Origin: Gemmatimonadales bacterium
GTDB taxonomy: Bacteria > Gemmatimonadota > Gemmatimonadetes > Gemmatimonadales > GWC2-71-9
NCBI GenBank assembly: GCA_037045245.1
Contig: JBAOHR010000007.1
Span: 860,604 to 924,603 of the forward strand
Direction of reading: 5' to 3'
Length of the DNA: 64,000 nucleotides
Numbering within the stretch: the first letter of the stretch is position 1; each line of letters starts with the position of its first letter. The notes beneath the pieces are model-generated. The model did no database searches. It was not told the DNA's origin and was given only the letters and a program-made list of their open reading frames with translations. This document shows positions 10,993 through 56,546 of this stretch, in pieces. Both the position numbers and the translations under genes were made by a program.

Positions 10993-11033
10993 ATTAATCT
11001 TCGCTCACCCCCGCACCTGCACCTGGTCCCGCC

Positions 11034-26278: not shown

Positions 26279-26280
26279 GG

Positions 26281-36339: not shown

Positions 36340-36367
36340 GCAGGGGCAGAGGGGTGACGTGCAGCGT

Positions 36368-36464
36368 GTCATCCCGAGCGAAGCGAGGGAGCTGCGTGAT
36401 CGTGAATGGGCCGAAGTTCTGCTCATTCGCGACTACGCGGGTCCCTCGCTGCGCTCGGGATGAC
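36368..36464. repeat. full copy of the GTCATCCYGAGCG palindromic (MITE/REP-like) element
   Basis: GTCATCCCGAGCGAAGCGAGGGAGCTGCGT ... ACGCGGGTCCCTCGCTGCGCTCGGGATGAC, inverted arms of about 30 nt. Confidence 0.8.
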
Positions 36465-36468
36465 GCGA

Positions 36469-37104
36469 TCACCCCCGCTTCCGTGACCGCCGCGCGCCAG
36501 CCATCCCGACCAACCCGGTGGCGAGCAACGTCAGCGTGGCCGGCTCCGGCACGACGTCGCCGTTGCCGCCCGGCGTCACGAAGCTGACATCGAGCGTCGC
36601 CGGGCCCGCGCTGCCGTAGAAGTTCGTCATGCGGCAGGGATCATCGTTCGGGTCGTTGCAGACCGCGTTCGGATCGAAGAGGGGGTTGGCCACGCTGATG
36701 GTGGTGCCGTCCGGCACCCGCGAGTAGCTCCCCGGGGTCGTGAAGGTCCCCGGCGCGAACCAGAAGAAGGCCGCACCGCCACCGGTCGGATCGTTGGTGG
36801 CCACGTCGAAGTTGAGGAAGCGGGCGCCGATGTACGAGAACCCGGTGCCGAAGCCGTTCGGATCGATCTCGGGCTGGTCGCACAGGTAGTAGTTGGTCCC
36901 CACGGTGCCCGGCGTGATCGAGCAGCTGGACGGGTTCCAGAATCCGCCCGACGTGATGGCGCTCCCGGTGGTGAGGGTGAAGGCGTAGGTCTGGGGTGTG
37001 CCAGTGAAATCCCACGTCCCGCTGAATTGGTACGTCCATTGCGCCGATGCCGGCGCGGCTCCCAGGGCGACCAGGAGCGCCCCCACAATGAATCGACTGC
37101 GCAT
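36469..37104 (-). CDS. PEP-CTERM sorting-domain protein
   Basis: 211 aa with a signal peptide and the C-terminal VPEPATLTLLATGLVGMAGARRSRKRG (PEP motif + TM + basic tail). Confidence 0.8.
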   Translation of the reverse strand: MRSRFIVGALLVALGAAPASAQWTYQFSGTWDFTGTPQTYAFTLTTGSAITSGGFWNPSSCSITPGTVGTNYYLCDQPEIDPNGFGTGFSYIGARFLNFDVATNDPTGGGAAFFWFAPGTFTTPGSYSRVPDGTTISVANPLFDPNAVCNDPNDDPCRMTNFYGSAGPATLDVSFVTPGGNGDVVPEPATLTLLATGLVGMAGARRSRKRG

Positions 37105-37159
37105 GCTGCCTCCAGTATGACGGATGTCCCCGGGGACCCGGTCGGGTCAGGGGGTATCC

Positions 37160-37850
37160 GGTCATGCGCAGGGGGGGCGGGAATTGGCTCATGGGGGGGG
37201 CGGCCGGATGGGCGCGGGGATGGGCCCGCGCGGGGAGGGCTCGCCGTGGGTAGGGGCGACGCATGCGTCGCCCGTACACACGGGGGGATCAACGCGCGCG
37301 GGGGGATCGGCGGGCGCGCGGGGGCGCGCGCGGGGCGGGCGCGCGGGGGCGCGCGGGGGCGCGGGCGCGGGCGCGGGGGCGGGGGCCGGGGGCGCGCGGC
37401 CGGATGCGCGCGGAAATTGGCCCGCGCGGGGAGGGCTCGCCGTGGGTAGGGGCGACGCATGCGTCGCCCGTACACACGGGGGGATCAACGCGCGCGGGGG
37501 GATCGGCGGGCGCGCGGGGGCGCGCGCGGGGCGGGGGCGCGCGGGGGCGCGGGCGCGGGCGCGGGGGCGGGGGCCGGGGGCGCGCGGCCGGATGCGCGCG
37601 GAAATTGGCCCGCGCGGGGAGGGCTCGGCATTGGCGCGGCGCGAGGCCCGCGCGGGCAGGGCTCGCCGTGGGTAGGGGCGACGCATGCGTCGCCCGTACA
37701 CACGGGGGGATCAACGCGCGCGGGGGGATCGGCGGGCGCGGGGGCGCGCGGGGGGATCGGCGGGCGCGGGGGCGCGCGGCCGGATGCACGCGGAAATTGG
37801 CGCGGGCGGGCGCGGGGCCGGGGGCGCGCGGGGGGATCGGCGGGCGTCAG
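37160..37850. repeat. tandem ~196/226-bp GC-rich units, each carrying the REP palindrome (BIME-like array)
   Basis: The unit GGGCTCGCCGTGGGTAGGGGCGACGCATGCGTCGCCCGTACACACGGGGGGATCAACGCGCGCGGGGGGATCGGCGGGCGCG...GGCCGGATGCGCGCGGAAATTGGCCCGCGCGGGGAG is repeated with REP cores at 37250-37277, 37446-37473 and 37672-37699. It abuts the 3' end of the RAYT gene. Confidence 0.85.
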
Positions 37851-38374
37851 CGGCGGATTTTGGCGATGTAGCGCGGAGGGTTGAGCGCGATGTAGCGGCG
37901 AATGATATGGAGCATGGGCTCGGTATCGATGAGACGCTCGTAGTAGTTGCGATGCCAGATGCGAGCCGGCGCATCCGGCCAGCGACGACGGATCTCCCGG
38001 CTCGAGGCGGACTTCAGGGAGCCGACGATGGCGCCCACCGAGCGGGGCGGCGGGCCATGGCCGCTCCACAGCGTGCGATCGCCATCGCCAGCGGCCAGAC
38101 GTCGATCATCGAGATGCAAGAGCCCGTGCACGTGATCGGGCATCACGACGAAGGCGTCGAGCGTCACGCCGGAGAAATGCTCGGGGATCGCATGCCACGA
38201 CGCCTCGACGATTCGCCCTGCCCACGTAAGGCACATGCGGCGGCCCCGCACTTCGGCGAGCAGGCGCTGTCGCTCCCCCGTCCCGAAGGTGAGGAAGTAC
38301 CAACCCGGACTGGCGTAGTGCCAACCCCGAATGCGGATCGACCGGCGGTGGTTGCGTCGCATGCGCTGAAGCAC
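37847..38374 (-). CDS. REP-associated tyrosine transposase (RAYT, IS200/IS605-like Y1 HUH enzyme)
   Basis: 175 aa. [12 protein letters not shown] motif [12 protein letters not shown] and the catalytic-Tyr region [11 protein letters not shown] follow the RAYT/TnpA-REP pattern. Confidence 0.85.
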
Positions 38375-38477
38375 GCAGGAAGGACGACTTCCAGCGGCGC
38401 GCGATGATGCGAGCCGGATCGCGAATGCGCGATCAATCGCCGCGGGAGGTCACCGTCATCGTGCTTACCTTTCCGCC

Positions 38478-38825
38478 ATGCCCAACACCCAGCCGCTCCC
38501 GCCCTGCCCGTCCTGCAACTCGCCCTACACCTACGAACAGGCGCCGCTCCTGGTCTGCCCCGAGTGCGGCTACGAGTGGAATGCCGCGGCCGAGCTGGCC
38601 GGGGAGGGGCCGCCGGTGATCCGCGACGCCAACGGCACCCCGCTCGCCGATGGCGACACGGTGACGGTCATCAAGGATCTCAAGATCAAGGGATCATCCC
38701 TGGTCGTGAAGGTCGGCACCAAGGTGAAGAACATCCGGCTCGTCGACGGCGACCACGACATCGATTGCAAGATCGACGGCGTGGGGTCGATGGGATTGAA
38801 GTCGGAGTTTGTGCGGAAGGTGTAG
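38478..38825 (+). CDS. phnA: zinc-ribbon protein PhnA
   Basis: 115 aa. [25 protein letters not shown] followed by [61 protein letters not shown] is the PhnA sequence pattern. Confidence 0.9.
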
Positions 38826-38841
38826 GGGCGCGCCAGAAATT

Positions 38842-39006
38842 GTCATCCCGAGCGAAGCGAGGGACCTGCGTACTCGCGATCACGCAGATCCCTCGCTACG
38901 CTCGGGATGACATGGCCGAGAGGTCCTTCGACTTCGCGCCGGCTGCGCCATCGCTACGCTCAGGATGACACACTCCGGGCACCCCCCTCACCCCTCACCC
39001 CTCACC
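38842..39006. repeat. 1.5 copies of the GTCATCCYGAGCG element followed by CCCTCAC heptamers
   Basis: Full unit at 38842-38911 (GTCATCCCGAGCGAAGCGAGGGACCTGCGTACTCGCGATCACGCAGATCCCTCGCTACGCTCGGGATGAC). Right half-unit GAGGTCCTTCGACTTCG..GCTCAGGATGAC runs to 38969. CCCCTCACCCCTCACCCCTCACC is at 38984-39006. Confidence 0.8.
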
Positions 39007-39757
39007 GATCCAGATCCCGCCGCGCCTTCCCCACCTGCAGCGCGATCTCCGGATAGCCGGGCCGCGCAATCGAGCCGAGCAGCACGCCGCGCTTGAGGCG
39101 CTGCTCCTCCCCGTGGCTGAGCCGCCGGACGAAGAGGTCGAGCTCCTCGCGGTTCTTCCGGCGATCCGATTCCTTGGTCCGATCGAGATAGACCAGCTCG
39201 TGGACCACGTAGACCGCGCGCGTCGCGCCGATCGAGGCGGCGTAGGCCATCGTCGCGGCGGCGCCCATAAGTAGGTCATGCCGCAACTCCTCGAGGTGCG
39301 GGAGTCCGGCCTTCCACGGCGGCAACAGCGCGGTGGCGAGTCGCTGGATGCGCCCCACCACGGGCGACGCTTCGTCGCGCCCGATGGCGCGGGCGGCATC
39401 GACGAGGACGTTGCCGAGTCGATCCCCGAAGCGTTCATCGGCAATCGCGTCGACGACGATCGCAAGCGGGCCGTCCTCGCAGTGCGCGGCGATCGCGAGG
39501 TCGGCGATCCAGCTGGTGTCGTCGACGGGGATGGTGGGGTGGACGTGTATGCTGCCGAGGGTGAGGCCGACGAAGCCGCCGCTGTCGAGCAGCGCCGCGA
39601 ATTCGTCGGGCTCGCTCGCCCGCCGGCCCTCGGGCCACCAGGCCCGCGCGAGCGCGCGCGCGCTGCGGCCGTCCTTCCATTGCTTGGGGGGAATTGCGGC
39701 GGCCCAATCATCGATCGTGGTGACGGGGCCGTGGTCGGTGCGGAGGGTGATGGGCAT
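39002..39757 (-). CDS. hypothetical protein
   Basis: The ATG at 39757 gives MPITLRTDHGPVTTIDDWAAAIPPKQWKDGRSARALARAWW. The track ORF extends to 40078 through repeat DNA. No family assigned. Confidence 0.5.
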   Translation of the reverse strand: MPITLRTDHGPVTTIDDWAAAIPPKQWKDGRSARALARAWWPEGRRASEPDEFAALLDSGGFVGLTLGSIHVHPTIPVDDTSWIADLAIAAHCEDGPLAIVVDAIADERFGDRLGNVLVDAARAIGRDEASPVVGRIQRLATALLPPWKAGLPHLEELRHDLLMGAAATMAYAASIGATRAVYVVHELVYLDRTKESDRRKNREELDLFVRRLSHGEEQRLKRGVLLGSIARPGYPEIALQVGKARRDLDR

Positions 39758-39768
39758 GCGGGAATGTA

Positions 39769-39922
39769 GATGATCGATGATCGATGATCGATTTTCCCCG
39801 CCCCCGACCGAAGGGAGGCGGCGGGGCCTCCGAAATCGCTGCACTCGGTCGCCAGAAGATGAAGGTACCGAGTGCATCTGGTTCGGAGGCCCCGCCGCTC
39901 GGGCTGCGCCCGAGGGCGGGGA
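39769..39922. repeat. GATGATC heptamer array + ~130-bp nested palindromic element (family 2)
   Basis: GATGATC x3 (39769-39792), then CCCCGCCC..GGCGGCGGGGCCTCCGAA..GCACTCGGT..ACCGAGTG..TTCGGAGGCCCCGCCGC TCGGGCTGCGCCCGA GGGCGGGGA. Confidence 0.8.
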
Positions 39923-39935
39923 GATTATGAGTTCC

Positions 39936-40316
39936 CTACCCCCGCCTCGTCGCGATCCACCACGTCGTCCCGCCCGGATCGCTGACGCCGCCGCGGCGAT
40001 CGGGATCGCCCTTCTGCTCCGGCTCCTGGACCGGGGTGCCGCCGGCGGAGATCGCGCGGAGGAAGGAGGCGTCGACATCGGGGAGATAGATATGGACGTG
40101 CGCGGCCACCGGCGGCCATCCCGGCGCCGAGTCCGCCACCATCACGACCGTGTCATCGATCCGCACCTCGGCGTGCCGAATCCGCCCGTCGGGCGCCTCG
40201 ATCGTCTGGATCAGCGAGGCGTCGAACGCGACCCGCAAGAAGTGGATCGTGGCCTTGGCGTCGGAGACGATCAGGTAGGGGGCAACAGAGGTGTAACCGG
40301 CGGGCTTGAAGTGCAT
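39936..40316 (-). CDS. VOC (glyoxalase/bleomycin-resistance fold) family protein, PhnB-like
   Basis: The ATG at 40316 gives MHFKPAGYTSVAPYLIVSDAKATIHFLRVAFDA....IRHAEVRIDDTVVMVAD...DPGGTTWWIA. Confidence 0.75.
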   Translation of the reverse strand: MHFKPAGYTSVAPYLIVSDAKATIHFLRVAFDASLIQTIEAPDGRIRHAEVRIDDTVVMVADSAPGWPPVAAHVHIYLPDVDASFLRAISAGGTPVQEPEQKGDPDRRGGVSDPGGTTWWIATRRG

Positions 40317-40421
40317 GCGGGCTCCCAGGGGGTGGGTTACCAGAATTGTAGCCACGCCGCCCAGGGGCGATGCGCAGTATGGAACAATGCGCAGAAGCTT
40401 GGGAGATTGGGTCATCGTGGA

Positions 40422-40688
40422 GGGGTGAGGGGTGAGAGGTGAGGGGGGTGAACGGTGAACGGTGAACGAAGGGCTGTCATCCTGAGCGGAGCACCCCGAA
40501 GGGGTGCGCAGTCGAAGGATCTGCGTACTCGCGATCACGCAGATCCCTCGCTACGCTCGGGATGACATGGCCGAGAGGTCCTTCGACTTCGCGACGGCGC
40601 TGCCGTCGCTCCGCTCAGGATGACAACAGCCTGGCCCCCCTCACCCCTCACCGTTTCGTCGTTCACCGTTCACCGTTCACCGTTCACC
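40422..40688. repeat. 267-bp four-layer nested palindrome (GGTGAGG heptamers / GGTGAAC heptamers / GTCATCC element / inner GTCATCC-type unit)
   Basis: GGGGTGAGGGGTGAGAGGTGAGG (40422-40444); GGGGTGAACGGTGAACGGTGAACG (to 40468); element 40476-40624, containing a second complete unit; CCCCTCACCCCTCACCG (40636-40652); GTTCACC x4 (40661-40688). Each layer pairs with its complement on the other side. Confidence 0.85.
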
Positions 40689-41480
40689 CAATCCCCCCTC
40701 CTTCTTCGGCCCCACCAACATCATCGACGGCGGAAACCCGAAGTTGCGCCGCGACGTGCGCGCCAGGTGCGGCGCGTCGGCGAAGCCGGCGGCGTGCGCC
40801 GCCTCGGAGAGCGATGCGCCTTCGGCGAGGAGCTTCCAGACGCGGAGGAAGCGGCGCCAGAGGATGTATTGCCGGAGCCCCATGCCGAGCTGCTCGACGA
40901 GCAGGTGCCGGCAGCGGCTCGGCGAGAGGCACGCCTCGCGCGCGACTTCTTCAAGTGTGAGCGGACGTGTGAGATGGAGATTGATGTAGCGCGTCGCGCG
41001 GAGGATTCGCTCGTCGGTGACCATCGTCGGCTGCACGCCGTCGGTGAGCACGCTCAGGAAGCGACGGATCGCCGCGACGAGCTGTTCGTCACTGCCCTTG
41101 AAGTACTGCTCGAAGACTTCACCGCGCTGGGCGTAGAACGACTCCGGCATCGGCGTGATGCCGAGGTCGAGGTGATGCTCGATCAGCGCGCGACCCTCGC
41201 GCGTCTCGGGTTCGACGAACATCACCGCGTTCACGGGGAGGCCGTATGCATCCATCGTGTGCGGCTGGCGCGACGCGATGATCGCGCCCGAGTAGGCCTG
41301 CCACGGCGAGTCGGTGTCGGGGCGCAGCTTCACGCCCGGCTCCGAGCCGAAGACGACCTGGATCGCGTAGTGGGAATGCGGCGGAACGAGGCCGACCTTC
41401 TCGCCGATGAAGAGACAGCCGCCGTCCCACGACACGAATCGTCCGACGCCGCCATGCACAGCCGTCACGCACCGCTCCAT
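40677..41480 (-). CDS. AraC family transcriptional regulator (cupin + HTH)
   Basis: C-terminal AraC HTH: LTLEEVAREACLSPSRCRHLLVEQLGMGLRQYILWRRF...AAHAAGFADAPHLARTSRRNFGFPPS. The stop codon lies in the GTTCACC array. Confidence 0.85.
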   Translation of the reverse strand: MERCVTAVHGGVGRFVSWDGGCLFIGEKVGLVPPHSHYAIQVVFGSEPGVKLRPDTDSPWQAYSGAIIASRQPHTMDAYGLPVNAVMFVEPETREGRALIEHHLDLGITPMPESFYAQRGEVFEQYFKGSDEQLVAAIRRFLSVLTDGVQPTMVTDERILRATRYINLHLTRPLTLEEVAREACLSPSRCRHLLVEQLGMGLRQYILWRRFLRVWKLLAEGASLSEAAHAAGFADAPHLARTSRRNFGFPPSMMLVGPKKEGGLGER

Positions 41481-41522
41481 CTCAGGGGGTGAGATAGAGT
41501 GTACACACGGCGGGCCGGCGCG

Positions 41523-42559
41523 CTAGACCATCGCCCCCCGCATCACCGCCGCCGCGACCAGCTCGGCGTCGGCGCCGACGCCACCGATCAGCGCCGAGGC
41601 GATCCGGCGCTGCTGCTGGAGCCCGACGAAGTGGAGGCCGGGGGTATCGCGCGCCGCGCGGATCCAGTCGTGCTGCGGCTTGAGGCCGGTGCACCAGATG
41701 ATCGTCGCAGGCTCGAGCACCTGCTCGCCGCAGATCGGCATCCCCTCGATCTCGCCGGAGAAGCGGCCGACGCGGACGATCCCGGCCGCGGGAATCGACG
41801 CGCGCGGGATCCCGATCAGCGAGTCGCCGCCGCTGCCGCGGGTGATCCGCCGGCCGAGGCGGGTGTCGAGCGGGAGCTTGGAGATCACCGGCCAGATCCA
41901 ATCGAAGAGGTCGCGGCCGAGCACGCGGCGCGGGAGATAGCCGGTGTCGCGGCCGGCGAGCCAGACCTTCCGGAAGCGGGCGATCTCGAGCGCGATCTGC
42001 GCGCCGGACGGGCCGGCGCCGACCACCAGCACGGGCCCAGGGGGGAGCCCGAACGGGTTCTGGTACTCCAGCGACGTCAATCTGCAGGATGTCTGGGGGC
42101 GAGTCGTTCCGCCCCCTTGGGGATCACCGGCTGCGCGAAGGCGCCGGTGGCGACGACGACCTGGTCGGCCTCGATCCGCTGCTCGCCGACGGTGAGCCGG
42201 AAGCGGGTGCCGTTCCAGTCGAGCGCGTCGACCGCCGAGTTGCCGCGTACCGGCAGGTCGAAGCGGCGCGCATACTCGGCGAGGTACGCGGCGACCTCGT
42301 CCTTGTCGGGGAGGTGATACGACGGCGCGGGGAACGGCATCCCGGGCAGCGACGAATAGCGCGCCGGGGTGAAGAGCCGGAGCGAGTCCCAGCGGCTGCG
42401 CCAGCTCTCGCCCAGCTCGGCGGCCCGGTCGAGAATCACGAAGTCGGCATCGTACTTGGCGAGGTGATAGCCGGTGGCGAGGCCGGCCTGCCCGGCGCCG
42501 ATGACGACGGTTTCGAAGCGCTCGACGCGAGACGGCGCGGTGACAAGCTGGTCGAGCAT
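41523..42559 (-). pseudogene. FAD/NAD(P)-dependent flavin monooxygenase-like oxidoreductase, frame-disrupted
   Basis: The N-terminal half is 42077..42559 (VVIGAGQAGLATGYHL, FAD GxGxxG). The C-terminal half is in the 41523..42764 frame (VLVVGAGPSGAQIALEI, second GxGxxG). The junction at about 42085-42110 seems to pass through the third frame (PDILQI), i.e. two 1-nt insertions about 20 nt apart. Confidence 0.75.
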
Positions 42560-42673
42560 GGGTCATCCCCTGGGCCCGGGTTCCGAAGGGCCACCCTGTG
42601 GTGGCGCGAACGGATCCAATATCAGGCGCGGTGGGGGGGCGGGACTTGAACGAGGGGGCTGACTTTGCGGGAC

Positions 42674-42895
42674 GATGGTCGATGATCGATGATCGATGAT
42701 CGATAACCCGCTTTCCCCGCCCCCGACCGAAGGGAGGGCGGCGGGGCCTCCGAAGCGGCCACACTCGGTGCCCCCAAGGCGTGTCATCCTGAGCGGAGTC
42801 CGCGTAGCGGACGAAGTCGAAGGACCTCTACCCGGTGCGCTGGGATAGAGGTCCTTCGACTACGCACCCCTTCGGGGTGCTCCGCTCAGGATGAC
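42674..42895. repeat. GATGATC array + left half of family-2 element + full GTCATCCYGAGCG element
   Basis: GATGGTCGATGATCGATGATCGATGATCGAT (42674-42704); CCCCGCCCCCGACCGAAGGGAGGGCGGCGGGGCCTCCGAA..CACTCGGTG; GTCATCCTGAGCGGAGTCCGCGTAGCGGACGAAGTCGAAGGACCTCTA...TAGAGGTCCTTCGACTACGCACCCCTTCGGGGTGCTCCGCTCAGGATGAC (42783-42895). Confidence 0.8.
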
Positions 42896-42899
42896 ACCA

Positions 42900-43433
42900 T
42901 TACTCCAACCCCGCCAACACCTCCAGCAACGACTCCCAGCTCGCCTCAGGAGTGGGCTCCACGACCTGCCACTCCTCTCTGGGGATCGTGATCAGCATCC
43001 CGCCATCGACGGTGATGTCCAGCGAGGGGACGGTGCCGAAGAGCTGCTCGCGCGGGCCGTCGGGGAGGAGGCCGATGACGCGCGGGAGGCCGCCGACGAA
43101 GCGCCTCAGCGGGAGGCCGCAGGAGAGGCACCAGCCGGTGATGCCACCGTTGGCGAGCATCCCCGAGAGTTCGGTGCCGCGCGCGTGGCCGCCGCAGACG
43201 GTGCAGCGGCCGGTGAACCACGCCGGCTCCTCGTGCCACATGTCGATCAGCGACCCGACGGTGAACGGTCCGGCGGTGAGGTGAACCCCTCGACAGCCGG
43301 TGCCTGGCACGCCGAGGTCGGCGTGATGGCGTCGGAGCCACTCGGCGTGGCGGTCGATCGTGGCGAACACGGTGGCGAGCTCATCATTGGGGAGCGCAAA
43401 CGGCTCCCAGGGGAGGGGTGTGACGTAGGACAT
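42900..43433 (-). CDS. hypothetical Cys-rich protein
   Basis: The ATG at 43433 gives MSYVTPLPWEPFALPNDELATVF. It contains CTVCGG...CLSCG (possible zinc ribbon). No family recognised. Confidence 0.5.
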   Translation of the reverse strand: MSYVTPLPWEPFALPNDELATVFATIDRHAEWLRRHHADLGVPGTGCRGVHLTAGPFTVGSLIDMWHEEPAWFTGRCTVCGGHARGTELSGMLANGGITGWCLSCGLPLRRFVGGLPRVIGLLPDGPREQLFGTVPSLDITVDGGMLITIPREEWQVVEPTPEASWESLLEVLAGLE

Positions 43434-43613
43434 GCGGCACCTGTGCGATGAACGATGCCGTCCCATTCGCGCATGGTTCCGACCCGGGGAGGGTCGGCCG
43501 GCAGGACCACCGATAAGGCACGGGTGGTGGCGGGTCAGGGAGCCGGAGCTCTCGCCGCACTCGACATGCTGGCCACCGGGACGGGGGTGGGCCGAAGCGA
43601 AAGGTAACGCGGG

Positions 43614-43833
43614 GATGATCGATGATCGATGATCGATTCCCCCGCCCCTCAGCCGCGGCCGTCAGGCCGCGGAGAGGCGGCGGGGCCTCCGAAGTCGCTG
43701 CACTCGGTACCCCAACAACTATTGAGCGACCGAGTGTATCTGCTTCGGAGGCCCCGCCGCTCGGGCTGCGCCCGAGGGCGGGGAGGTTATCTCAACGGAC
43801 GCGCCGCTCGGGCTCCACCCGAGGGCGGGGAGG
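43614..43833. repeat. GATGATC array + full family-2 palindromic element with duplicated right terminus
   Basis: GATGATC x3 (43614-43637); GGCGGCGGGGCCTCCGAAGTCGCTGCACTCGGTAC...GACCGAGTGTATCTGCTTCGGAGGCCCCGCCGC TCGGGCTGCGCCCGAGGGCGGGGAGG, then a second CGCCGCTCGGGCTCCACCCGAGGGCGGGGAGG. Confidence 0.8.
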
Positions 43834-43836
43834 ATC

Positions 43837-45030
43837 CTACTGGCGCATCCGATACGTCACCACGCTCTCCACGCCGAGGGAATCGCGCTGGTGGGCCAGG
43901 AGATAGTCACGGCCGATCTCGTAGACCTCGAGGGCCGGCCATTCGGCGCGGCAGACGGCGCGTCCCTCGGGAGAGAAGGCGATCCACGCGCGCCGCGAGG
44001 AGTCGGTCGCGGCACGCCCGCGCACCCAGATGCGCCCGTCTTTCCCCATCACGATGTTGGTCACCGCCGGGTAGCGCTCGGCGACTGGCCGCTTCGGATC
44101 GAGCATCGGGTCGACCAGGCGGGCCTTCATGTCGGGCGAGATGTCCGGATACTGCGCGGCGAGCTCCGCGCGCGCCGCAGCGACGGCGGCATCGGTCACG
44201 GTGCGGTCCTCGGTGGTCCAGCGGATCACCAGCGACGGCACCACCTTCTGCCCGACCTTGTAGATCACCAGCTCGGGCTCATTCCAGGTGGCGACCGCGA
44301 GTCGATCGCCGCTGCCCTCGACCTGTGCCGCTCCCTCGAACCATGGCCGCATCCAGACCGACCCCGGATCGGCCACGGTCTGACCCATCCGGCCGCTCGG
44401 CACCGCCATGACGGTGTCGCGCAACGCGCCGTTCGGTCCGTAGCGCAGGATCGTCACCGAATCCATCACCCAGTTGGCGCGCCGACCGATCTCGGCCTTG
44501 CCGAAGATCTGCTGACCATCGTCGAAGATCGCGGCGACGTTCGGGGAGTTGATCTCCGAGGGCGCGGTGACCACGGTCCGCGCGAACTTCATGTCGGGGC
44601 CGAAGAGATGCCACTGCCACGGGCTGTAGTCACCGACCCAGAGCGTGTCGCCGACGGTCCGATACATCAGGAAGGCGTCGGTGAATTCGCCGGGACCCTT
44701 CCCCTCGCGCCCGGCACGGCCGACCAGCGCGCCGGTCGAGTCGTACCAGCGCACCTCCTGCGTCCCCTGATTCACCAGGGCGATCCGGCCATCGGTCAGC
44801 CGACTGCTCCCCATGACGCGATGCAGATACGTCGCCTCGGAATCGTCGGCGCTGCCGATCCGCACCGACGGCACGCTGTCGAGCGTGCAACTCGCCGTCA
44901 CGGCCGTCATGGTGTTCTCGGCGATCGTCACGCCGAGGCTGTCTCGGGTGGTGAAGGCGGCGGTGGGCTTGGCAGCGTCGGCACAGGCGACGACCAGGAG
45001 CAGCGGCAGGATGGCGCGGAGCGGATGCAT
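43837..45030 (-). CDS. lipoprotein, 6-bladed beta-propeller-like
   Basis: The ATG at 45030 gives MHPLRAILPLLLVVAC (lipobox). GKGPGEF and repeated hydrophobic/Gly-Asp blade-like units are present. The fold call is weak. Confidence 0.5.
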   Translation of the reverse strand: MHPLRAILPLLLVVACADAAKPTAAFTTRDSLGVTIAENTMTAVTASCTLDSVPSVRIGSADDSEATYLHRVMGSSRLTDGRIALVNQGTQEVRWYDSTGALVGRAGREGKGPGEFTDAFLMYRTVGDTLWVGDYSPWQWHLFGPDMKFARTVVTAPSEINSPNVAAIFDDGQQIFGKAEIGRRANWVMDSVTILRYGPNGALRDTVMAVPSGRMGQTVADPGSVWMRPWFEGAAQVEGSGDRLAVATWNEPELVIYKVGQKVVPSLVIRWTTEDRTVTDAAVAAARAELAAQYPDISPDMKARLVDPMLDPKRPVAERYPAVTNIVMGKDGRIWVRGRAATDSSRRAWIAFSPEGRAVCRAEWPALEVYEIGRDYLLAHQRDSLGVESVVTYRMRQ

Positions 45031-45142
45031 GCAGGAGCCTGGGCAGGAGGGGGAGGCCACCGACGCGGATGGATCAACGATACCGCAGGGTGGTGGGTGG
45101 GGGGAGGGTGGCGTGGGGGGAGGGTGGCGTGGGAGCGTGGGG

Positions 45143-45286
45143 GGGTGAACGGCGAACGGGATGATGGATGATGGATGATGGATTCCCCCGCCCCCGACCG
45201 AAGGGAGGGCGGCGGGGCCTCCGAACTAGACACACTCGGTACCGCTCCGACTGCATGACCGAGTGCAGCGACTTCGGAGGCCCCGC
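45143..45286. repeat. GGTGAAC + GATGGAT heptamers + family-2 palindromic element (truncated right end)
   Basis: GGGGTGAACGGCGAACGG; GATGATGGATGATGGATGATGGAT (45160-45183); CCCCGCCCCCGACCGAAGGGAGGGCGGCGGGGCCTCCGAA..CACTCGGTAC..GACCGAGTG..CTTCGGAGGCCCCGC. Confidence 0.75.
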
Positions 45287-45858: not shown

Positions 45859-46126
45859 GTGGGCTACCTCCTCGAGCGCGAGCGGATCAGATCGCGCAAC
45901 CGTCTTGGGGATAGCTCGATATACAAAGTTCAGTATTGTCCGTCAATCTGCGCCTCCGGGTTGCCCGAAGGATGGAGGGCTGATCCTGGGCCCGCGGAGG
46001 CGATTTGGACGCGGGAATGGACGCGGAAATGCAGGAGGAACGCAGCGGCGCGGGGTGACTTTACAGCCGCGCATGCCTGCCCTGAGCGAAGTGAAGGGTC
46101 AATGCGCGGCGATGGTGGGAAGATCT

Positions 46127-46290
46127 GTCATCCCGAACGCAGTGAGGGACCTGCGTGATCGCGAATGGGCAAGCGCTTGCCCGCTCACGACTACGCAGGT
46201 CCCTCGCTTCGCTCGGGATGACGGATTGGGGGGTACCGAGTGTATCTGCTTCGGAGGCCCCGCCGCTCGGGCTGCGCCCGAGGGCGGGGA
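46127..46290. repeat. full GTCATCCYGAGCG element + right half of family-2 element
   Basis: GTCATCCCGAACGCAGTGAGGGACCTGCGT...ACGCAGGTCCCTCGCTTCGCTCGGGATGAC (46127-46222); GGTACCGAGTGTATCTGCTTCGGAGGCCCCGCCGCTCGGGCTGCGCCCGAGGGCGGGGA (46232-46290). Confidence 0.8.
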
Positions 46291-46300
46291 AACTCCATCC

Positions 46301-46930: not shown

Positions 46931-47015
46931 GAAGGCGAGCGTGCGAGGTGGTTGAGGGATTGTTGGACAGTGGAGGGGGAATGTTGGGGGTTGTGGAGGT
47001 GTTTGACCCGCCCCT

Positions 47016-47317
47016 TCACTCCAGAGTGCGCTTCGCCCCACACGCAGCGCAAAGCTTGGCCTCCGGTGTCCGCAGTGGCTTGCCACACGCCGCGCAGGGC
47101 GGTCCGTACAGGGCGAGTGCGGTGGTGCCACGAGTGCAGCGGGGTTCGTCTCGGGCAAGCCGGTGATGCGCTGATACTCGGCGAGCGCTGCGCCTGCCGA
47201 ACAGGCCGCGACGTGTGGTCTCTCTGCACGAAGCAAGGCGGCCGACCACCGCGCACTCGGTCCTCGTCCAGCATCGGGCATCTCCATCTGGCAGCGCCAG
47301 CAGTAGAGCAGTTGCAT
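47016..47317 (-). pseudogene. possible small double zinc-ribbon protein, spread over three frames
   Basis: MQLLYCWRCQMEMP (frame of 46301..47317), MLDED.. (46432..47274), ..AALAEYQRITGLPETNPAAL.., and the end YGPPCAACGKPLRTPEAKLCAACGAKRTLE (47016..47444). Speculative reconstruction. Confidence 0.2.
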
Positions 47318-47334
47318 TCGGACTCACTCCGTCA

Positions 47335-47758
47335 CTAACGGTGGCGTGGTCGGCCTTGTGCGGTGCAGCGCCAAGTAGGTGGGCAGCGCGGCGCAAGAAC
47401 GGCGGCGATGTGCCCCGACTCCAGCACCGCGCCGAAGTGCCCATCGCAGAAGCGATCGTATCGCACGTGCCCGTAGAGCAGTTTGCGGAGCGTCACCAGG
47501 CGGGCGCGACCGAGGGCGCGTGGGTCATGCATCAATTCATCGGCGCGCCGGCCCCACGCGCTCCAGTTGAATTCGATCATGACACCCGACTCGTAGAGTG
47601 CCTTGTGAAGGCGCATCCCGACCGGTGCGAGGTCGTAGTAGGGGAATTGCCCTTCCTTCCACACCATCCGCCCGGCCTCGAAATCCGGTGCCTCGAGCTC
47701 CGGGAAGAAAGGCGAGGACGTCGCCCCAGTGAGGGGTGTCGGTGTTGCGATTTGGCAT
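47335..47758 (-). pseudogene. DUF6508-like protein, one frame change
   Basis: RALGRARLVTLRKLLYGHVRYDRFCDGHFGAVLESGHIAAVL resembles the DUF6508 C-terminal signature as I recall it. The ATG at 47758 (MPNRNTDTPHWGDVLAFLP) is in the 47537..47812 frame and joins ELEAPDFEAGRMVWKEG in the 47335..47955 frame. Confidence 0.35.
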
Positions 47759-47804
47759 TGCGGAAATGTAGGGTGTGGGTGTGACAGCGACAGCACGCCA
47801 GCCG

Positions 47805-48298
47805 TTATCCACGAAACCAGTGGCCTGACATGTCGGCCTTCAAGCCGGACTTGGCGATCAACAGGGCTGCACATGCCGAGCAGACTCTGACAATGCCACG
47901 ATTCGACTTGGTGAACTGGTGGAAAATCGAACCGAGTGCGTGGCACTTTGCGCAATGGCCTCTCTCCGACACCAAACGATCCCGTGTGGTGTGGAGCTGA
48001 ATGGGCTCCTCCGGGGCCGATTGAAGTCGCTGGTCATACAGTGCATCGTTGGGAACCACCGTGACCGTACGCGTTGCCACGACGTGAATCAGGCGTGAGC
48101 GGTGGCCGCGACGGCGCGCTGCGTTGGGGCGAGGGGCGCCTGAGAACGGGCGCTGGCGCGACCTGTGGAACAGGTGGCTTTGGTTTCTCCCGCGGTGGTG
48201 GCGCTGCCACCACTTTGCCTCGGCACGTGCTGCTCGTGGGCCTTCAGCAAGCGGACATCGAAATACTCGGCACACTTGGTACATGCTCGAAGTCTCAC
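47805..48298 (-). pseudogene. possible zinc-finger protein, one frame change
   Basis: The N-terminus MRLRACTKCAEYFDVRLLKAHEQH (C2H2-like, 48089..48298) continues in the 47805..48284 frame with ..HCAKCHALGSIFHQFTKSNRGIVRVCSACAALL. Confidence 0.2.
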
Positions 48299-48333
48299 AA
48301 TGTCTCCCCTTCTACTAGTCGTTCGTTGTTGCC

Positions 48334-48690
48334 CTAGTTCTGGTAGACGCCATAGCCCTGAGACCGGAGTTCCTCCGCGTACGCTCGCTCGTATTCTTCC
48401 GCTATTCGAGACTCCTCACGATCGAGTTGCTGGCGGAGCTTTTCCCGCACGAGTTCAAGCCCAAACTCTCTCGCCGACCTGCAAGACTTATAGCCGTTCA
48501 GATGTTGAGCGAACCTTGTTTCGGGGTCAGTGTCCAGGTCTTTCCGACGTAGAGAAAGTCGCGGAACCACGGTCGACTCTGTGTTTTGCTCGATAAAGCG
48601 ATCATCTTGCGCCACTTTCGGATCAAGCCGAACCACATACAACCAGCGCCCACCTTGGGTAGTCGCTGTTGCCCAGTCACGAGGCTGGCG
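48334..48690 (-). pseudogene. possible GIY-YIG-like protein, frame-disrupted
   Basis: WLYVVRLDPKV... and ETRFAQHLNGYKS...AEELRSQGYGV are in the 48334..48822 frame. The expected YIG-type motif FLYVGKT appears only in the 48498..49997 frame. Confidence 0.25.
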
Positions 48691-51060
48691 CAGCGGTAGA
48701 TCCCCCGCAGGATGCCGTCTCGGCCGTGCCCGCCGACCGAGCGCCAGAATTTTTGGCGGCCTTGCGAACCCGGCGGCCGAACATTGTGCGAACGAAGTAG
48801 TGCAGCACCATTCCATCCGCATTCTCGAGCTGTCTGGTCACCTCTCCTGCCACCGCTCCCCAGTTCGAGCTCCATCCGGTCGAGATGAAGTCCACGATTA
48901 GGTAAGGGGCATCCACCTTCAGGATTTCGGCGGATCTCTTCCTCGTACTGGATCTGCATCTCGTTGCCTCCCACCACTAAGAGGCGTATGTGACGCTTGG
49001 CAGGGGGCGCTGGCGGTGGCTCGAGCTTGCCCTCGAGACGATCGAGGCGACTGCGCAGCTCTGCAACTACCTCGTCCACGTGCTCAAACTCTTCCAAGCG
49101 CTCAAGATACGAGACCGCTTCCGCCCTTTGCCAGAGCTCCGGGCGAGCGAGTGCTTCTTGAGCCAATTGGATGAGGAGTCCCACCCCCGCGTCTCGATCT
49201 CCGCGTGCCAGCTGCAACTCAGCCTCCGCCAGGCGGAGCTCTTCAGGTTCTCGGATGGAGGTCAGCCGCTCCTCGGTATGAAGCAGTTGGATCGCGTCTT
49301 GAGTCCCGATCCCCCTCGCTGCCAGCTCAAGCACTGATCCCAATGCCTCGTCGGCTTCGTCAAGGAGCGCTTCGTGGCGGAGCAAGCCACAAAGCGCAGT
49401 CTTTGCGGCGTCAGCCCGTCGACTGGTGGAAAGTCCGTCCTTGCGGCTGCGTTCCAGGAATGCCAAGGCGACCGCTGGGATATCCGTAGCCAGCTGGGCC
49501 AGGGTGGGCACAATGTCTTCGCCGCGCTGCCTGACCAAGGCACCGAACATCCGCCCCGCAAGTTCAACGTCGGCCGTGCCTACGGCGGTGAGCACGGACT
49601 CGAGCATCCAACTGGGGATTCGGAGCTCCTCGGTCGTGGACTCGAGCAGCCGAGTCCCCGCCGAGAGGACCGTTCGGGGAGTCCCACCCTCCAGACAGAC
49701 CGCCAGCGAGTGGTGCAGGTCCGCGCGATCCAGTAGCCCAGAGCGCGTATACACGTCTGGTCGATTCCGGAACGCGGAGAGGGCGCGCTCAAGTTCAGCC
49801 CGTGCGAGTGCGAAATGCTCTGACAGCAAGTGGAACATCCCAAGCGCATATCGCGCATGGGCGGCACCGTCCGGATCGAGATCAATTGCCCGATCCAACA
49901 GTGGCCTGACATCGGCAAGGCGTCCCGCCTCCGCCACAGCGTCACCCCGTTCCTCGGGTAGGACGACATCAGCGAGCTCCCGCCAGCCGGCATCCATGAG
50001 CGCCAGGTCCGTGAGCGGCGTCTGGAGCGGAGTGCTGCGTCTTGATCCTCCTCGTCGATCAGGGGCACCACGATGCTCCTGGCGGCATCGAACTCACCGG
50101 CAAGGCGGGCGGCAGTGTGCCTGCCGGCGCCTGCCGCCGTCCGAACAAAGTCGTCGGGGACGGAATGCCCCTGCTCTTCGGCAACGGCGAGTCCATTCCG
50201 GAGGCGGTCGAACGCCGGCCGTGCCGTGGCGAAATCGCGCAGCAGCAAGTGGCTCGAGGCAAGCGCGAAGAGGCGGCGCCCCGATACGTGGCGACGCCGC
50301 CACGGCCTTGGGGCCGATCGAATGCGATCGCTTCCGTGCTGGCGGCCGGCCTCCCACAGCACGCCCAGCAGGAGGTGGGGCGCCGCCTCTGCACTCGCGC
50401 CCATGCCGTCGTTGCCAAGTTGGCGACAGAGGGGATCGGCATCAAACAGTGCGAGTACCTCCGCATCGCGCTGGCGACGCAAGCAGACCGGCAATCTTGC
50501 CGGCCAAATACCACCGTCGCGCGTTCTCGGATGTCCCGGCGGGCTGCGGGGCGAATTGCCCCTTCATCGAAGAGCGCCGAGAGCCGCCCCGCCGCATACC
50601 ATGACTGGTGGCGCTGCGGATGGGCCGCGACCAGCTCGGCAACCAGGCGCCGCGCAGCCTCCATTGGGAGGGCCGCCTCGGCGTGGTTGGCCGAATTGAC
50701 GAGGTGGACAATGACTACGTCGTCAAGAACTCCGAGCTGCTGTCCGATTCCGGGAAGCGCCAGACGGAATCCGCGGAGGCGCGGTTCGGTCGTCCTCGGA
50801 CTCCTGCTTCGCTTCGGGCTCGTCCTGTTGAGGGGCTCCTGGCACTGCGGCAGCAGCCGCTGGGGATAACGCATGCAACGCGTCGCCAAGACCTGGCCAT
50901 CCCTCGGGGATGATGGCCAGGAGACACTCGAGATAGTGTCGCGCCTCGCTCCCGTGCTGTTCCGGCAGGGCCGGCACCGCACGGGCGACCGCCTCAGGGG
51001 TGACGAACGGAGGCGACTGTTCGTCGGTGCGACGAGGCCCGTCATGGGCAACACCGACAT
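48677..51060 (-). pseudogene. large helical/TPR-like protein with DUF2325-like C-terminal domain, many frame changes
   Basis: A coherent helical-repeat sequence can be followed through track ORFs 50723..50977, 50059..51060, 50442..50711, 49580..50494 and 48498..49997. The C-terminus is RLLVVGGNEMQIQYEEEIRR.. then LIVDFISTGWSSNWGAVAGEVTRQLENADGMVLHYFVRTMFGRRVRKAAKNSG (48677..48916). Boundaries are approximate. Confidence 0.35.
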
Positions 51061-51339
51061 GCCCAGAAGAAACTCTCCTGAATCGTGGGATTCAGGTCGA
51101 TGTAGTGGGCTTTCAGCAGACTTTCAGACATTAGCTGCAGGAGTCTCAAGCGCACGTCGGACGATGTCCCGTGCCAGCTGCTGGACAGGGCCATTTCGCG
51201 AGCGTTTCGGGGCGGAATCCCCCGACACGGATCACGAAACGGCGAATGATGTGACTCCGGAAGTCGCGATTGCTCCGGAGGCGAAGCGCAACGGCCGCCT
51301 CGCGGGAGGCGACCGGGAGGGCGCGGCAAAGTTCCATGA

Positions 51340-51858
51340 TCATCGTCGAGCACCCTCCACGATGTGCTGCCTACGGCCAGTTCGGCCGCGGCGCAGGGTA
51401 GACCGGCAGCGTCGGGCAGCCTGGTGCCAGTGACCGTACCGTAGGTCGAGCCCCCAATGCGCTGACTCGTTCCGTAGAGATTGGCGCCATTTGAGCCGGT
51501 CGCGTTGAGGAAGGGTCGACGAACCGATCCGCTGGGCGGTGCCGTTGACGTTCACGCCAGACTGGGTGCGGTAGTTGAGATAGTCGATGTTGCCGATCGT
51601 CTGAGTGGTGCCCGTGGTCCCGCGATTGTCATTGTCGTCAGGGAGCGGTTCGAGCCGATCCGCTGGGTCGTGCCGTACCCGCCGCGGTTGTCGTTGGTAT
51701 AGGTCTGCTAGACCAATCTTCTGCGCGGTGCTCGAGTAGCCATTCGAACAGGTCGAGTAGGTCATCGTGCCAATGGTTTGGCTGGTGCAGGAAACTGACT
51801 GGGCCTCAGCGACGGCCGGGAGGCAGAAGGCTGCGACTACGAGGATGAACGACTTCAT
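51340..51858 (-). pseudogene. secreted protein with GT-x-Q-x-IG repeats, frame-disrupted
   Basis: The ATG at 51858 gives MKSFILVVAAFCLPAVAEAQS (signal peptide). Five units of the type (S/T)TAQKIG, GTTQRIG, GTTQTIGNIDY, GTAQRIGSST and GTSQRIGGSTY are visible, but only when three frames are combined. Confidence 0.3.
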
Positions 51859-52183
51859 GGGGACCTCGGGGAGAATGGCTTGGGCAGGCCGGAACGAGCT
51901 AGCAAGGTGCAATTCGCGTTCCCCGACGGGCGACGAGCTAACACATTGACCAGTAATGCGTTGGCCGAGCTGACCACACCAAACGGTCATTCGATTGTGG
52001 CGCGGCTGCGACGTTGAGGCCACCAGGCGCGGGGGGACCGGATTGGCGGAGGCTCAAGTCAACACGGAACGAACCTCGCCTTGGGGTGTGACAGCTGCGC
52101 CGCCTTCCCCCCAGACCCATCTCACGCAGCGGCGCGCAATCTGCGCCTGCCACCGAGCCGCGTCATTACTCGCACGGCCGATG

Positions 52184-53305: not shown

Positions 53306-53393
53306 GATATGCCATCCGTCAGGGGAGCTGGATTGTCCAATTCTGTCATTTCACTGCTTCTACTAGGATAGCCCTGCCAGCGGATCGCCTCCT

Positions 53394-56505: not shown

Positions 56506-56546
56506 CCGGGCTCCTTGATTCTGTGATCTAGCTCACCTGCCCCAGC

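Follow-up and report, generated by a model that had tools for sequence, protein, structure and literature searches.

The DNA analysed here is a stretch of 64 kb from contig JBAOHR010000007.1 of a soil Gemmatimonadales bacterium, referred to below as the window, with a GC content of 67%. In this window, an intergenic hairpin of about 270 nt (positions 40420-40688) was identified between two co-directional genes on the minus strand, the upstream one coding for an AraC-family regulator and the downstream one for a protein of the glyoxalase/VOC family. The hairpin occupies the gap of 360 nt between these genes. Its arms consist of tandem arrays of 7-nt units, and a palindromic element is located between the arms (Table 1). 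The composition of the feature is very probably that of a mosaic, in which heptamer arrays resembling the short tandemly repeated repetitive (STRR) sequences are combined with a nested palindrome of the type of a repetitive extragenic palindromic (REP) sequence or a MITE (miniature inverted-repeat transposable element).

Architecture and Folding of the Intergenic Hairpin

A direct re-reading of the region returned the sequences quoted in the preliminary description of this DNA at the positions given there. The three GGTGAAC units of the left side (40447-40468) pair with the GTTCACC units of the right side (40659-40689) over 23 nt with 100% complementarity, and the GGTGAGG-type heptamers (40431-40448) are complementary to the CCTCACC units (40635-40652) over 18 nt with 94%. 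The inverted-repeat finder identified two further stems inside the element, formed by 40506-40522 with 40576-40592 and by 40513-40531 with 40532-40550. A further pairing, with arms of 46 nt and 72% complementarity, brings the GGTGAGG-type region together with positions 40689-40708.

In the preliminary description, the region was regarded as a palindrome of four nested layers. The layers and their pairings are present, but a strict nesting is not, since the two outer layers cross each other. The order of the outer arrays is [GGTGAGG][GGTGAAC] ... [CCTCACC][GTTCACC], which is an A-B...A'-B' arrangement, and for this reason a nested structure cannot contain both outer pairings at once. In the folds of minimum energy, GGTGAAC takes GTTCACC as its partner, while the GGTGAGG units take positions 40689-40708, which are located beyond the right boundary assumed before. 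The CCTCACC units remain mostly single-stranded in these folds, and 40635-40652 can reach 40431-40448 only by crossing the GGTGAAC/GTTCACC stem. The complete second unit that was thought to be enclosed by the element, GTCGAAGGA / TCCTTCGAC, proved to be the central stem of the outer element itself, and the tip of this stem holds a truncated copy from a related subfamily.

For an estimate of the stability, a region of 291 nt was folded as RNA on both strands and as DNA, and was compared to 200 shuffled sequences in which the dinucleotide composition was preserved. The RNA of the plus strand folds with -167 kcal/mol (z = -7.8) and that of the minus strand with -174 kcal/mol (z = -9.3), in both cases compared to a mean of about -120 kcal/mol for the shuffles. 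For DNA, -98 kcal/mol was obtained compared to about -57 kcal/mol (z = -9.9). In each of the three folds, 0 of the 200 shuffles matched the stability of the native sequence. With z-scores from -7.8 to -9.9 and no shuffle folding as well, the structure is real and goes beyond chance.

The arrays are also connected to the end of the upstream gene. The AraC stop codon (40677-40679) is located inside the GTTCACC/GGTGAAC array, and the protein ends with ...GPKKEGGLGER*. The reading frame terminates with GGT GAA CGG TGA, so that it is the heptamer array which provides the stop codon. On both strands, the purine-rich strand runs 5' to 3' from the flanking gene toward the centre of the hairpin. Both arms close all three frames that read inward and none of the frames that read outward; on the left side, the arrays at 40420-40468 do so jointly.

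Rfam gave no match for the whole window at the gathering threshold, and for 40300-40800 at E <= 10 only noise from plant miRNA hairpins below the threshold was obtained. A reading of CUGAGCGAAGCGAA as a hammerhead-like motif was discarded on inspection, because the core departs from the consensus at positions 8 and 9.

Table 1: Features of the intergenic hairpin, its flanking genes, and further copies and composites. Positions refer to the window unless L001, a related genome, is named.
Feature	Position	Strand	Description
Left outer array	40420-40446	+	GGTGAGG-type heptamers, about 3.9 copies; purine-rich, TGA in the unit; Tandem Repeats Finder (TRF)
Left inner array	40447-40468	+	(GGTGAAC)x3, perfect; TRF and own scan
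Inner palindromic element "Type 1", TGTCATCCTGAGCG...CGCTCAGGATGACA	40475-40625	.	Inverted-repeat finder; family copies aligned
Left terminal inverted repeat, TGTCATCCTGAGCGGAGC	40475-40492	+	18 nt, 100% complementary to 40608-40625
Small hairpin module, ACCCCGAAGGGGT	40493-40505	+	Read from the sequence; also in the copy at 42782-42896
Central stem, 5' half, GCGCAGTCGAAGGATCT	40506-40522	+	88% pairing with 40576-40592; conserved in every copy of Type 1
Truncated "Type 2" element, TCTGCGTACTCGCGATCACGCAGATCCCTCGCTACGCTCGGGATGACA	40520-40567	+	At the tip of the central stem; contains the hairpin 40513-40550
Central stem, 3' half, AGGTCCTTCGACTTCGC	40576-40592	+	Pairs with 40506-40522
Small hairpin module, GACGGCGCTGCCGTC	40593-40607	+	Read from the sequence; related GACGGC...GCCGTC modules in L001 copies
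Right terminal inverted repeat, GCTCCGCTCAGGATGACA	40608-40625	+	Pairs with 40475-40492
Right array 1, CCCCTCA/CCTCACC	40635-40652	+	About 2.3 copies; pyrimidine-rich
Right array 2, GTTCACC	40655-40688	+	4 perfect units and 1 degenerate unit; minus strand (GGTGAAC)4
Outermost pyrimidine-rich flank, CAATCCCCCCTCCTTCTTCG	40689-40708	+	Inside the AraC coding sequence; paired with the GGTGAGG-type region in the folds
AraC-family regulator gene (upstream)	40677-41480	-	Pfam HTH_18, E = 2.9e-16
Glyoxalase/VOC-family gene (downstream)	39936-40316	-	Pfam Glyoxalase, E = 3.6e-9, residues 15-121 of 126
Clean Type 1 copy	42782-42896		115 nt
Further window composite with element	26274-26440		
Window array pairs without element	988-1084, 10869-10992, 12494-12585		
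L001 composites	1490-1680, 2481-2690, 3093-3343, 4235-4660, 10785-11062, 11836-12073		Purine-rich arrays / Type 1 / pyrimidine-rich arrays

Heptamer Arrays in the Window and in Related Genomes

By TRF and an own scan, 21 arrays in 12 clusters were identified in the window, all of them between open reading frames (ORFs) or at the boundaries of ORFs. The arrays range in length from 16 to 80 nt and consist of 7-nt units arranged head to tail. With a period of 7 in clear excess and several families present, their description as STRR-like tandem heptamers was borne out. The families GATGATC, GGATGAT, GGTGAAC, GGTGACC, GGTGAGG, GCGAGAA/T, and CGTGAAA were all found again, as were the other sites listed before. 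It had also been stated that the arrays are used in the same way at these other sites. Of the 12 clusters, only 5 are inverted pairs, and the other 7 are solo arrays. In total, at least 8 unit families are present in the 64-kb window, and about 19 in the sample of the lineage.

The preference for seven nucleotides was identified by counting arrays of different periods. In 318 kb of Gemmatimonad DNA, 41 arrays with period 7 were found, compared to 7 each for periods 5 and 6 and 1 each for periods 8 and 9. In 152 kb from non-Gemmatimonad loci, two arrays with period 5 were obtained and none with periods 6, 7, 8, or 9. A further control consisted of 80 soil metagenome loci from an AraC scan, with identities of at most 61% except for one fragment of 286 nt; these 282 kb contained a single array of period 7, the only period that was counted there. 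No strain-level relative of the AraC locus was present among the 80 metagenome loci. The 41 arrays are distributed unevenly, with 19 in the window, 14 in L001, 3 each in L002 and L004, and 1 each in L003 and L006. Among the relatives sampled, the heptamer arrays are confined to this sublineage.

Most of the units share a (G/A)TGA core, in agreement with the preliminary description. On the purine-rich strand, a stop codon, mostly TGA, is contained in the unit of 35 of 51 arrays, compared to 15.5% expected for random 7-mers, and on the other strand in none. A stop codon of a gene on the same strand was found at most 45 nt upstream of the array or inside of it for 18 of 48 arrays when these were read on the purine-rich strand, and for 0 of 48 when read on the pyrimidine-rich strand.

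The longest array of the window (17523-17602) comprises about 12 units, which on the minus strand drift from GTGACCx to GTGAACG and further to GTGGGCG. This array contains the stop codon of a gene coding for a WYL/PafC-like regulator (17599-19227).

Arrays of GGTGAGG, GGTGAAC, and GATGATC were also identified in contigs with a GC content of 39-71% (L184-L214), where they are present beside many other heptamer families. This occurrence implies that particular heptamers with a TGA core recur across distant lineages. The formation of G-quadruplexes was considered as a general explanation for the arrays and rejected, because most families are devoid of G-runs, and runs of at least three are present only in the GGGGTGA family.

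At one end of the window, from about 47000 to 64000, the GC content is 58-62% compared to 67-73%, and no heptamer arrays are present. The genes in this part code for a GmrSD-type endonuclease (54778-56505), a DUF4917 protein (58151-59023), an Eco57I/MmeI-like methylase-endonuclease (60809-63862), and a DUF6508 protein. The stretch from 47 to 64 kb is probably a horizontally acquired defence island.

The Inner Palindromic Element and Its Copies

The element between the arms has an 18-nt terminal inverted repeat (TIR) on the left and the closing repeat on the right; between them, a central stem is flanked by one small hairpin on each side. Its ends can be written as TGTCATCC...GGATGACA, with termini of the TGT...ACA type. 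When the terminus GTCATCCTGAGCG was used as a query with up to 2 mismatches, 15 matches were obtained in the window, where 3.4 were expected, and 13 matches in the 20.8 kb of L001. From these copies, two types have been distinguished. In Type 1, TGTCATCCTGAGCGRAGC is followed by one small hairpin and GCGCAGTCGAAGGACCTCT...AGAGGTCCTTCGACTGCGC, and these are followed by another small hairpin and GCTYCGCTCAGGATGACA. Type 2 is defined by TGTCATCCCGAGCGAAGCGAGGGAnCTGCGT...ACGCAGnTCCCTCGCTnCGCTCGGGATGACA, with full copies at 36367-36465, 46126-46223, and 38841-38912.

The small hairpins can be exchanged as modules and are found in varying combinations, for example AGCCTGAAAGGCT, ACCCCGAAGGGGT, TCCGCGTAGCGGA, and GACGGC...GCCGTC. 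At the place which is taken by 40493-40505 in the hairpin, other copies of the element hold different self-complementary modules. The element at 40475-40625 is of Type 1, and its central stem contains the right two-thirds of a Type 2 element. A block of 73 nt within it (40521-40593) is identical to 38866-38938, located 1.6 kb away, where Type 2 is followed by the right half of Type 1. This identity indicates that the elements have also been copied or recombined as blocks.

Several properties of known small elements were identified. As in MITEs, the element has TIRs (18 nt in length), is non-coding, and is present in copies of 69-151 nt. As in REP sequences and the REP doublets forming hairpins (REPINs), it is a short imperfect palindrome with many extragenic copies, arranged as an inverted doublet with a spacer.

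Outside of the lineage, the 18-mer terminus was found without mismatch in 76 stretches of IMG/VR contigs (L108-L183) with a GC content of 40-69%. Here, the terminus is joined directly to GAAGGATC, or else a variable mini-hairpin and then AGTCGAAGGATC come after it. Solo halves account for many of these copies, and full palindromes with a length of about 70 nt for some, as in L140 (503-573). The stretch that is conserved at the terminus of the element spans 18-26 nt across these contigs. A search of the plasmid collection with the clean Type 1 copy gave no match. For the terminus motif TGTCATCCTGAGCGRAGC, no description was found in Rfam or in the searchable literature, and searches with the sequence string returned unrelated primers or nothing. 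Judged from the spread of its terminus, the TGTCATCC element looks like a very widespread, undescribed superfamily of small repeats.

Two further repeats were noticed in the same part of the window. A third palindromic family is present at 39800-39925 and consists of a CCCCGCC...GGCGGGG hairpin, CCTCCGAA, ...ACTCGGT ... ACCGAGT..., TTCGGAGG, and a mirror hairpin; halves of it were found at 42705-42775, 45184-45240, and 46223-46300, and it often adjoins a heptamer array. The second is a complex, very G-rich repeat at 37212-37846 with a GC skew of +0.19, built from units of about 100 nt and about 200 nt that contain GGGGCGACGCATGCGTCGCCCGTAC and CGGGGGGATCAACGCGCG. It also has long runs of the GCGGGG type, and no convincing ORF extends across it.

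Composite Layout and Polarity of the Arrays

The arrangement of arrays as modular and partly complementary arms around palindromic elements, which had been proposed from this single stretch, is not restricted to the AraC locus. It recurs in the window, in six composites of L001, and in two unrelated contigs, L144 and L162. In L144, arrays of AATTAAG are followed by the element and by arrays of TCAATTC. In L162, GGGGTCA arrays are followed by a half element with a subsequent T-run (...GGATGACAGGTTTTTG...) and by CTGATCC arrays. Of the pairs in the window that do not enclose an element, the one at 10869-10992 is properly nested, with GGTGAAC and CGTGAAA on one side and TTTCACG and GTTCACC on the other.

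The contig L162 has a length of 132 kb, and the composite is found in it at 6590-6790, 10100-10280, and 11050-11230. Its parts are (GGGGTCA)n, hexamers of TTAGAAGCAAGAGC, a hairpin or one half of the TGTCATCC element, GGTTTTT, and (CTGATCC)n. The grammar of these composites is the same as that of the hairpin at the AraC locus, with the addition of a terminator-like T-run.

The polarity of the arrays is strict. In the lineage, mixed clusters in which purine-rich arrays are followed by pyrimidine-rich ones were found 11 times, and the reverse order 0 times. Complementary pairs were defined as arrays matching in at least 6 of 7 positions within 350 nt. Convergent pairs compared to reverse pairs amounted to 9:0 in the lineage, 7:2 in the contigs selected for the element, and 8:0 in the contigs bearing heptamers. 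Over the three data sets, this results in 24 pairs in one polarity compared to 2 in the other, in accordance with the expectation that the arrays are preferentially arranged in inverted pairs.

The same data sets have also been used for a comparison of arrays and element. In the contigs selected for the element (745 kb), 46 arrays of period 7 were counted, compared to 8, 12, 10, and 1 for periods 5, 6, 8, and 9, and about a quarter of the 76 loci hold a heptamer array. By contrast, 31 loci chosen for arrays of GGTGAGG, GATGATC, or GGTGAAC contain 63 arrays of period 7 and 0 copies of the element. Heptamer arrays and the palindromic element are two separable repeat classes. A single mechanism giving rise to both the heptamers and the TGTCATCC elements was considered, and is weakened by the absence of the element from all 31 loci selected for heptamers.

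Turnover and Gene Order among Relatives

Orthologues of the AraC protein have been identified in metagenome-assembled genomes (MAGs) of the Gemmatimonadales with identities of 92% (L001), 87% (L002), and 84% (L003). When the sites behind the AraC stop codon were compared, as the preliminary description had suggested, the arrays were found to differ or to be absent. In L001, (GGCGAAC)4 and (GATGATC)4 are followed by the element and by GATCATC/CATCCAT arrays. In L002, (GGATGAT)4 is separated by about 110 nt from (GTTCGCC)3, and no element is present. L003 has no array at this site. The tail of the AraC protein past the conserved GPK(K/R) also differs in each relative. In L001, an identical array of 33 nt, including one variant unit, is present at 10786-10818 and at 11838-11870, which points to block copying.

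The order of the genes around the hairpin has also changed. A segment of the window (36400-45200) was compared to the corresponding segment of L001 (1700-12800), the two having about 80% nucleotide identity. The blocks that are shuffled comprise a hypothetical gene X, the FAD-oxidoreductase gene together with araC, the VOC gene, a hypothetical gene Y, the gene for PhnA/YjdM, and the gene for a PEP-CTERM protein. In the window, the order on the minus strand is X / FAD-oxidoreductase+AraC / VOC / Y / PhnA / Z, and in L001 it is X / VOC / PhnA / ... / FAD-oxidoreductase+AraC / Y / Z. At every boundary of a reshuffled block, a repeat composite is present, whose arms have moved together with the gene next to them. 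For example, a GATCATC array and TACATTCCCSCATG are located upstream of gene Y in both the window and L001. Since this array stays with gene Y in both genomes, the breakpoints lie inside the composites. The composites mark the breakpoints of gene order between related genomes, which bears on genome evolution as well as on the quality of assemblies.

Proposed Origin and Function, and Rival Explanations

For the origin of the hairpin, we propose that the arrays arise and change their length through slippage, and that arrays and elements would in addition be copied as blocks from one locus to another. For insertion or recombination, the palindromic elements might favour the centres or tips of hairpins that already exist, and such a preference would lead to the accumulation of palindromes within palindromes. 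At the AraC locus, insertion or recombination has placed the truncated Type 2 copy in the tip of the Type 1 element's central hairpin.

As to function, our proposal is a tentative one and is held with some doubt: the hairpin may act as RNA at the end of the AraC transcript, either as a REP-like protector of the 3' end or as a terminator or insulator which is independent of a U-tract. On the minus-strand transcript, the AraC reading frame ends within the first array; behind it, arms and inner element would fold into a very stable branched hairpin (with the -174 kcal/mol given above). This hairpin could serve as a mark or an insulator at the 3' end of the AraC transcript and hold off 3' exonucleases, while the TGA heptamers would close all three frames to ribosomes arriving from either side. 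Hybrids of r(purine):d(pyrimidine) are more stable than hybrids of r(pyrimidine):d(purine). The pyrimidine-rich 3' arm would accordingly form a weak RNA:DNA hybrid that could be stripped by the purine-rich 5' arm, which would fit a release driven by the hairpin. The explanation as a whole, combining the mosaic repeat with its origin and a role as RNA hairpin, is the best one available, and we regard it as about evenly balanced between right and wrong.

A number of observations weigh against this explanation. The polarity is kept in the divergent promoter region at 10869-10992 and for solo arrays beside gene starts (39769, 42673, 43614, 45159); at these sites, termination and the supply of stop codons are irrelevant. 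L003, with its AraC identity of 84%, manages without an array at the orthologous site, so that any function has to be dispensable or replaceable. The GCGAGAA and GGCGAAC families are devoid of a stop codon. A U-tract after the hairpin was found on neither strand, and scans with consensus sequences identified no promoter or terminator at the element. Around the copies of the element, no consistent direct repeat was seen as a target-site duplication, and several copies have complementary flanks instead. Finally, no transposase, REP-associated tyrosine transposase (RAYT), or integrase was found among the ORFs of the 64-kb window scanned with Pfam, so that we infer the mobility of the inner element only from the distribution of its copies. 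The closing of three frames was also considered as the sole explanation for the arrays and was rejected, on the basis of the GCGAGAA and GGCGAAC units and because the polarity is found at the 5' ends of genes as well.

The main rival is that the composites are neutral or selfish debris, with slippage-prone arrays and non-autonomous palindromes accumulating in tolerant intergenic space, and we consider this unlikely. The polarity would then be a matter of survivorship: at the 3' ends of genes, only arrays giving an immediate stop would be tolerated, and at the 5' ends, purine-rich arrays would be purged for creating Shine-Dalgarno-like ATG/GTG mini-ORFs, with the hairpin having no role of its own. 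That the arrays are found in convergent, co-directional, and divergent intergenic regions alike, and that they abut or enter the ends of ORFs, is what such debris would lead one to expect, and the purine-rich units indeed hold GTG or ATG together with GG(A/T)G motifs. The site without arrays in L003, the different units in L001 and L002, and the lack of arrays in the island at 47-64 kb, which has a low GC content and was probably acquired recently, point in the same direction. What debris does not account for is that the two arms share a family far too often for independent arrays, with 9 complementary pairs in about 126 kb (the window and L001-L004) and perfect arms of 23 nt in the hairpin itself. 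It is also at odds with period 7 being favoured over other periods that are not multiples of three, and with the same grammar being present in unrelated lineages.

The polarity could instead be the signature of a process at the DNA level that starts from the centres of palindromes, which would be fragile through cleavage of hairpins or cruciforms; this we judge to be improbable. After a break, the purine-rich strands would form the 3' tails on both sides. The arrays would result from stuttering or templated extension of 3' ends during repair, or would be polar, Chi-like signals that halt resection before it reaches the genes. The arms and the nested TGTCATCC-type palindromes would record cycles of breakage, repair, and insertion, which would also drive the shuffling of single-gene blocks. 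Such a process would explain why the purine-rich 3' ends face the centre on both sides whatever the orientation of the genes, including the divergent pair at 10869-10992, why palindromes are nested at the centre, and why the boundaries of reshuffled blocks are all composites whose arms move with the adjacent gene. At least 19 unrelated units in one lineage are, however, hard to fit to a single recognised Chi sequence or a single template, in the window no candidate enzyme was seen, many arrays are solo, and the central element is often missing, as in all 31 heptamer-rich loci. To our knowledge, there is no experimental precedent for such a process in bacteria. The arrays could also serve as platforms for a protein that binds single-stranded RNA or DNA with a footprint of 7 nt, like the proteins with a cold-shock domain, and thereby tune the hairpin in anti-termination or translational control. 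A period of strictly 7 nt whatever the sequence of the unit would be accounted for in this way, and CspB of B. subtilis was described to bind to heptamer repeats with one protein per unit, weak specificity, and a preference for pyrimidine-rich sequences (PMC4679880); upstream of start codons, pyrimidine-rich arrays were found in 14 of 48 cases and purine-rich arrays in 7 of 48. The many different units would demand a very permissive protein, no lineage-specific binding protein was identified, and nothing in the window ties a protein to the arrays, so that we hold a binder to be highly improbable. An interpretation of the composites as attC-like sites bounding mobile one-gene cassettes of an integron was rejected, its chance of being correct being slight. 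The order of single-gene blocks differs between the window and L001 with composites at all boundaries, and some units end with AAC or start with GTT like attC cores, but GGTGAAC and GTTCACC fail the Y and R positions of RYYYAAC/GTTRRRY, attC sites do not contain tandem cores, and no integrase is present in the window. Furthermore, the genes are present in both orientations and include ordinary chromosomal ones, one block consists of two genes, and the composites are scattered amid housekeeping genes across 45 kb or more. An artefact of short-read assembly is hardly credible at all. Short tandem and inverted repeats are a classic source of misassembly, and contigs ending within heptamer regions have been noted (MacGregor 2015, PMC4679880); yet the same grammar was found in independent MAGs from separate studies (L001, L002, L004) and in IMG/VR contigs, and the arrays are in frame with conserved gene ends and, at 16-80 nt, below the read length.

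Comparison with Known Repeat Systems

The over-representation of heptamers in bacteria has been known since 1990 and 2007. The lineage studied here is an unusually informative case, since many families are present side by side, the strict polarity generalises to other phyla, the arrays are coupled to stop codons, and their turnover is visible. The arrays of the lineage further recur together with a palindromic element whose terminus spans very different genomes. The rules for polarity and stop codons reach beyond this genome.

With intrinsic terminators, the hairpin has in common that a GC-rich hairpin directly follows the stop codon, often between convergent genes, and that its 5' arm is rich in purines and its 3' arm in pyrimidines. 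It differs from them by the missing U-tract, by stems of 20-45 nt that are made of tandem repeats, by a "loop" of about 190 nt that is itself folded, and by the presence of the structure in divergent promoter regions as well.

A short repeated extragenic palindrome that occurs as an inverted doublet with a variable spacer is known from the REP, bacterial interspersed mosaic element (BIME), and REPIN sequences (Bertels & Rainey 2011, PMC3116915). BIMEs are, like the composites, mosaics of several repeat types and are located in the 3' untranslated region (UTR). Unlike REP sequences, the inner element has termini of the TGT...ACA type and not a GTAG head, and a RAYT was not seen in the window. 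The element also differs by its two extra, exchangeable mini-hairpins and by a terminus that is conserved far more broadly than any REP family. In Nostoc, tiny hairpin modules inside other repeats, in genomes rich in heptamers, were reportedly described by Elhai and colleagues in 2008. The sequences of the small dispersed repeats of Nostoc and the phylum differ from those at the AraC locus.

The STRR heptamers of cyanobacteria were, as is said, described by Mazel and coworkers in 1990. Neither the host nor the unit sequences of STRR1-3 are matched by the arrays of the Gemmatimonadales, with their units GGTGAGG, GGTGAAC, GATGATC, GCGAGAA, and others. Arrays of TAACTGA were identified in Beggiatoaceae, cyanobacteria, and Bacteroidetes, and mixed heptamers in Microcystis and Bacteroidetes (MacGregor 2015, PMC4679880). 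The STRR and TAACTGA arrays are similar to those of the window in being dispersed intergenic heptamers whose units often contain TGA or TAA, with several families in some genomes, and in being located at breaks of synteny, with differences between close relatives. They differ in the phylum and the units, and in their position mostly just upstream of start codons. Unlike here, the TAACTGA arrays are nearly all direct, with 169 direct sets compared to 1 inverted set in the Guaymas "Maribeggiatoa" (PMC4679880).

The closest likeness to the complementary arms has been described for Xanthomonas. The preliminary description considered such arms to be without precedent, which does not hold, since convergent pairs of GGGAATC have already been described there (PMC4692102). 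In each Xanthomonas genome, 183-186 arrays of the GGGAATC type were identified, with 70-75 convergent pairs (Rehm et al. 2015, PMC4692102). These arrays either overlap the upstream ORF or lie at a mean distance of 28 nt from it, they differ from species to species, and starts or ends of transcripts coincide with the repeats more frequently than with controls (PMC4692102). In both systems, tandem 7-nt units, typically 3-5 copies, are arranged close together on opposite strands with the G-rich or purine-rich one first, are mostly intergenic near or overlapping the upstream stop codon, and are tied to regions of lower conservation. The convergence, the proximity to stop codons, and the variation between species in Xanthomonas match the rules for polarity, gene ends, and turnover that were found in the Gemmatimonadales.

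Differences to the Xanthomonas pairs are found in the units and in the layout. In Xanthomonas, essentially one unit with G-quadruplex potential is used, whereas many families, most of them without this potential, are present here. Unlike in Xanthomonas, two families are stacked in each arm, and the order of the arms is not always nested. The pair here often encloses a separate palindromic element, while for the Xanthomonas arrays no link to mobile elements was found (PMC4692102). In the literature searched, no report of heptamer arrays in Gemmatimonadota was found, no description of many families being combined as arms, and none of the recurrent enclosure of a distinct palindrome. Convergent heptamer pairs as such were already known, and the hairpin downstream of the AraC gene is a more elaborate form of them in a new phylum.

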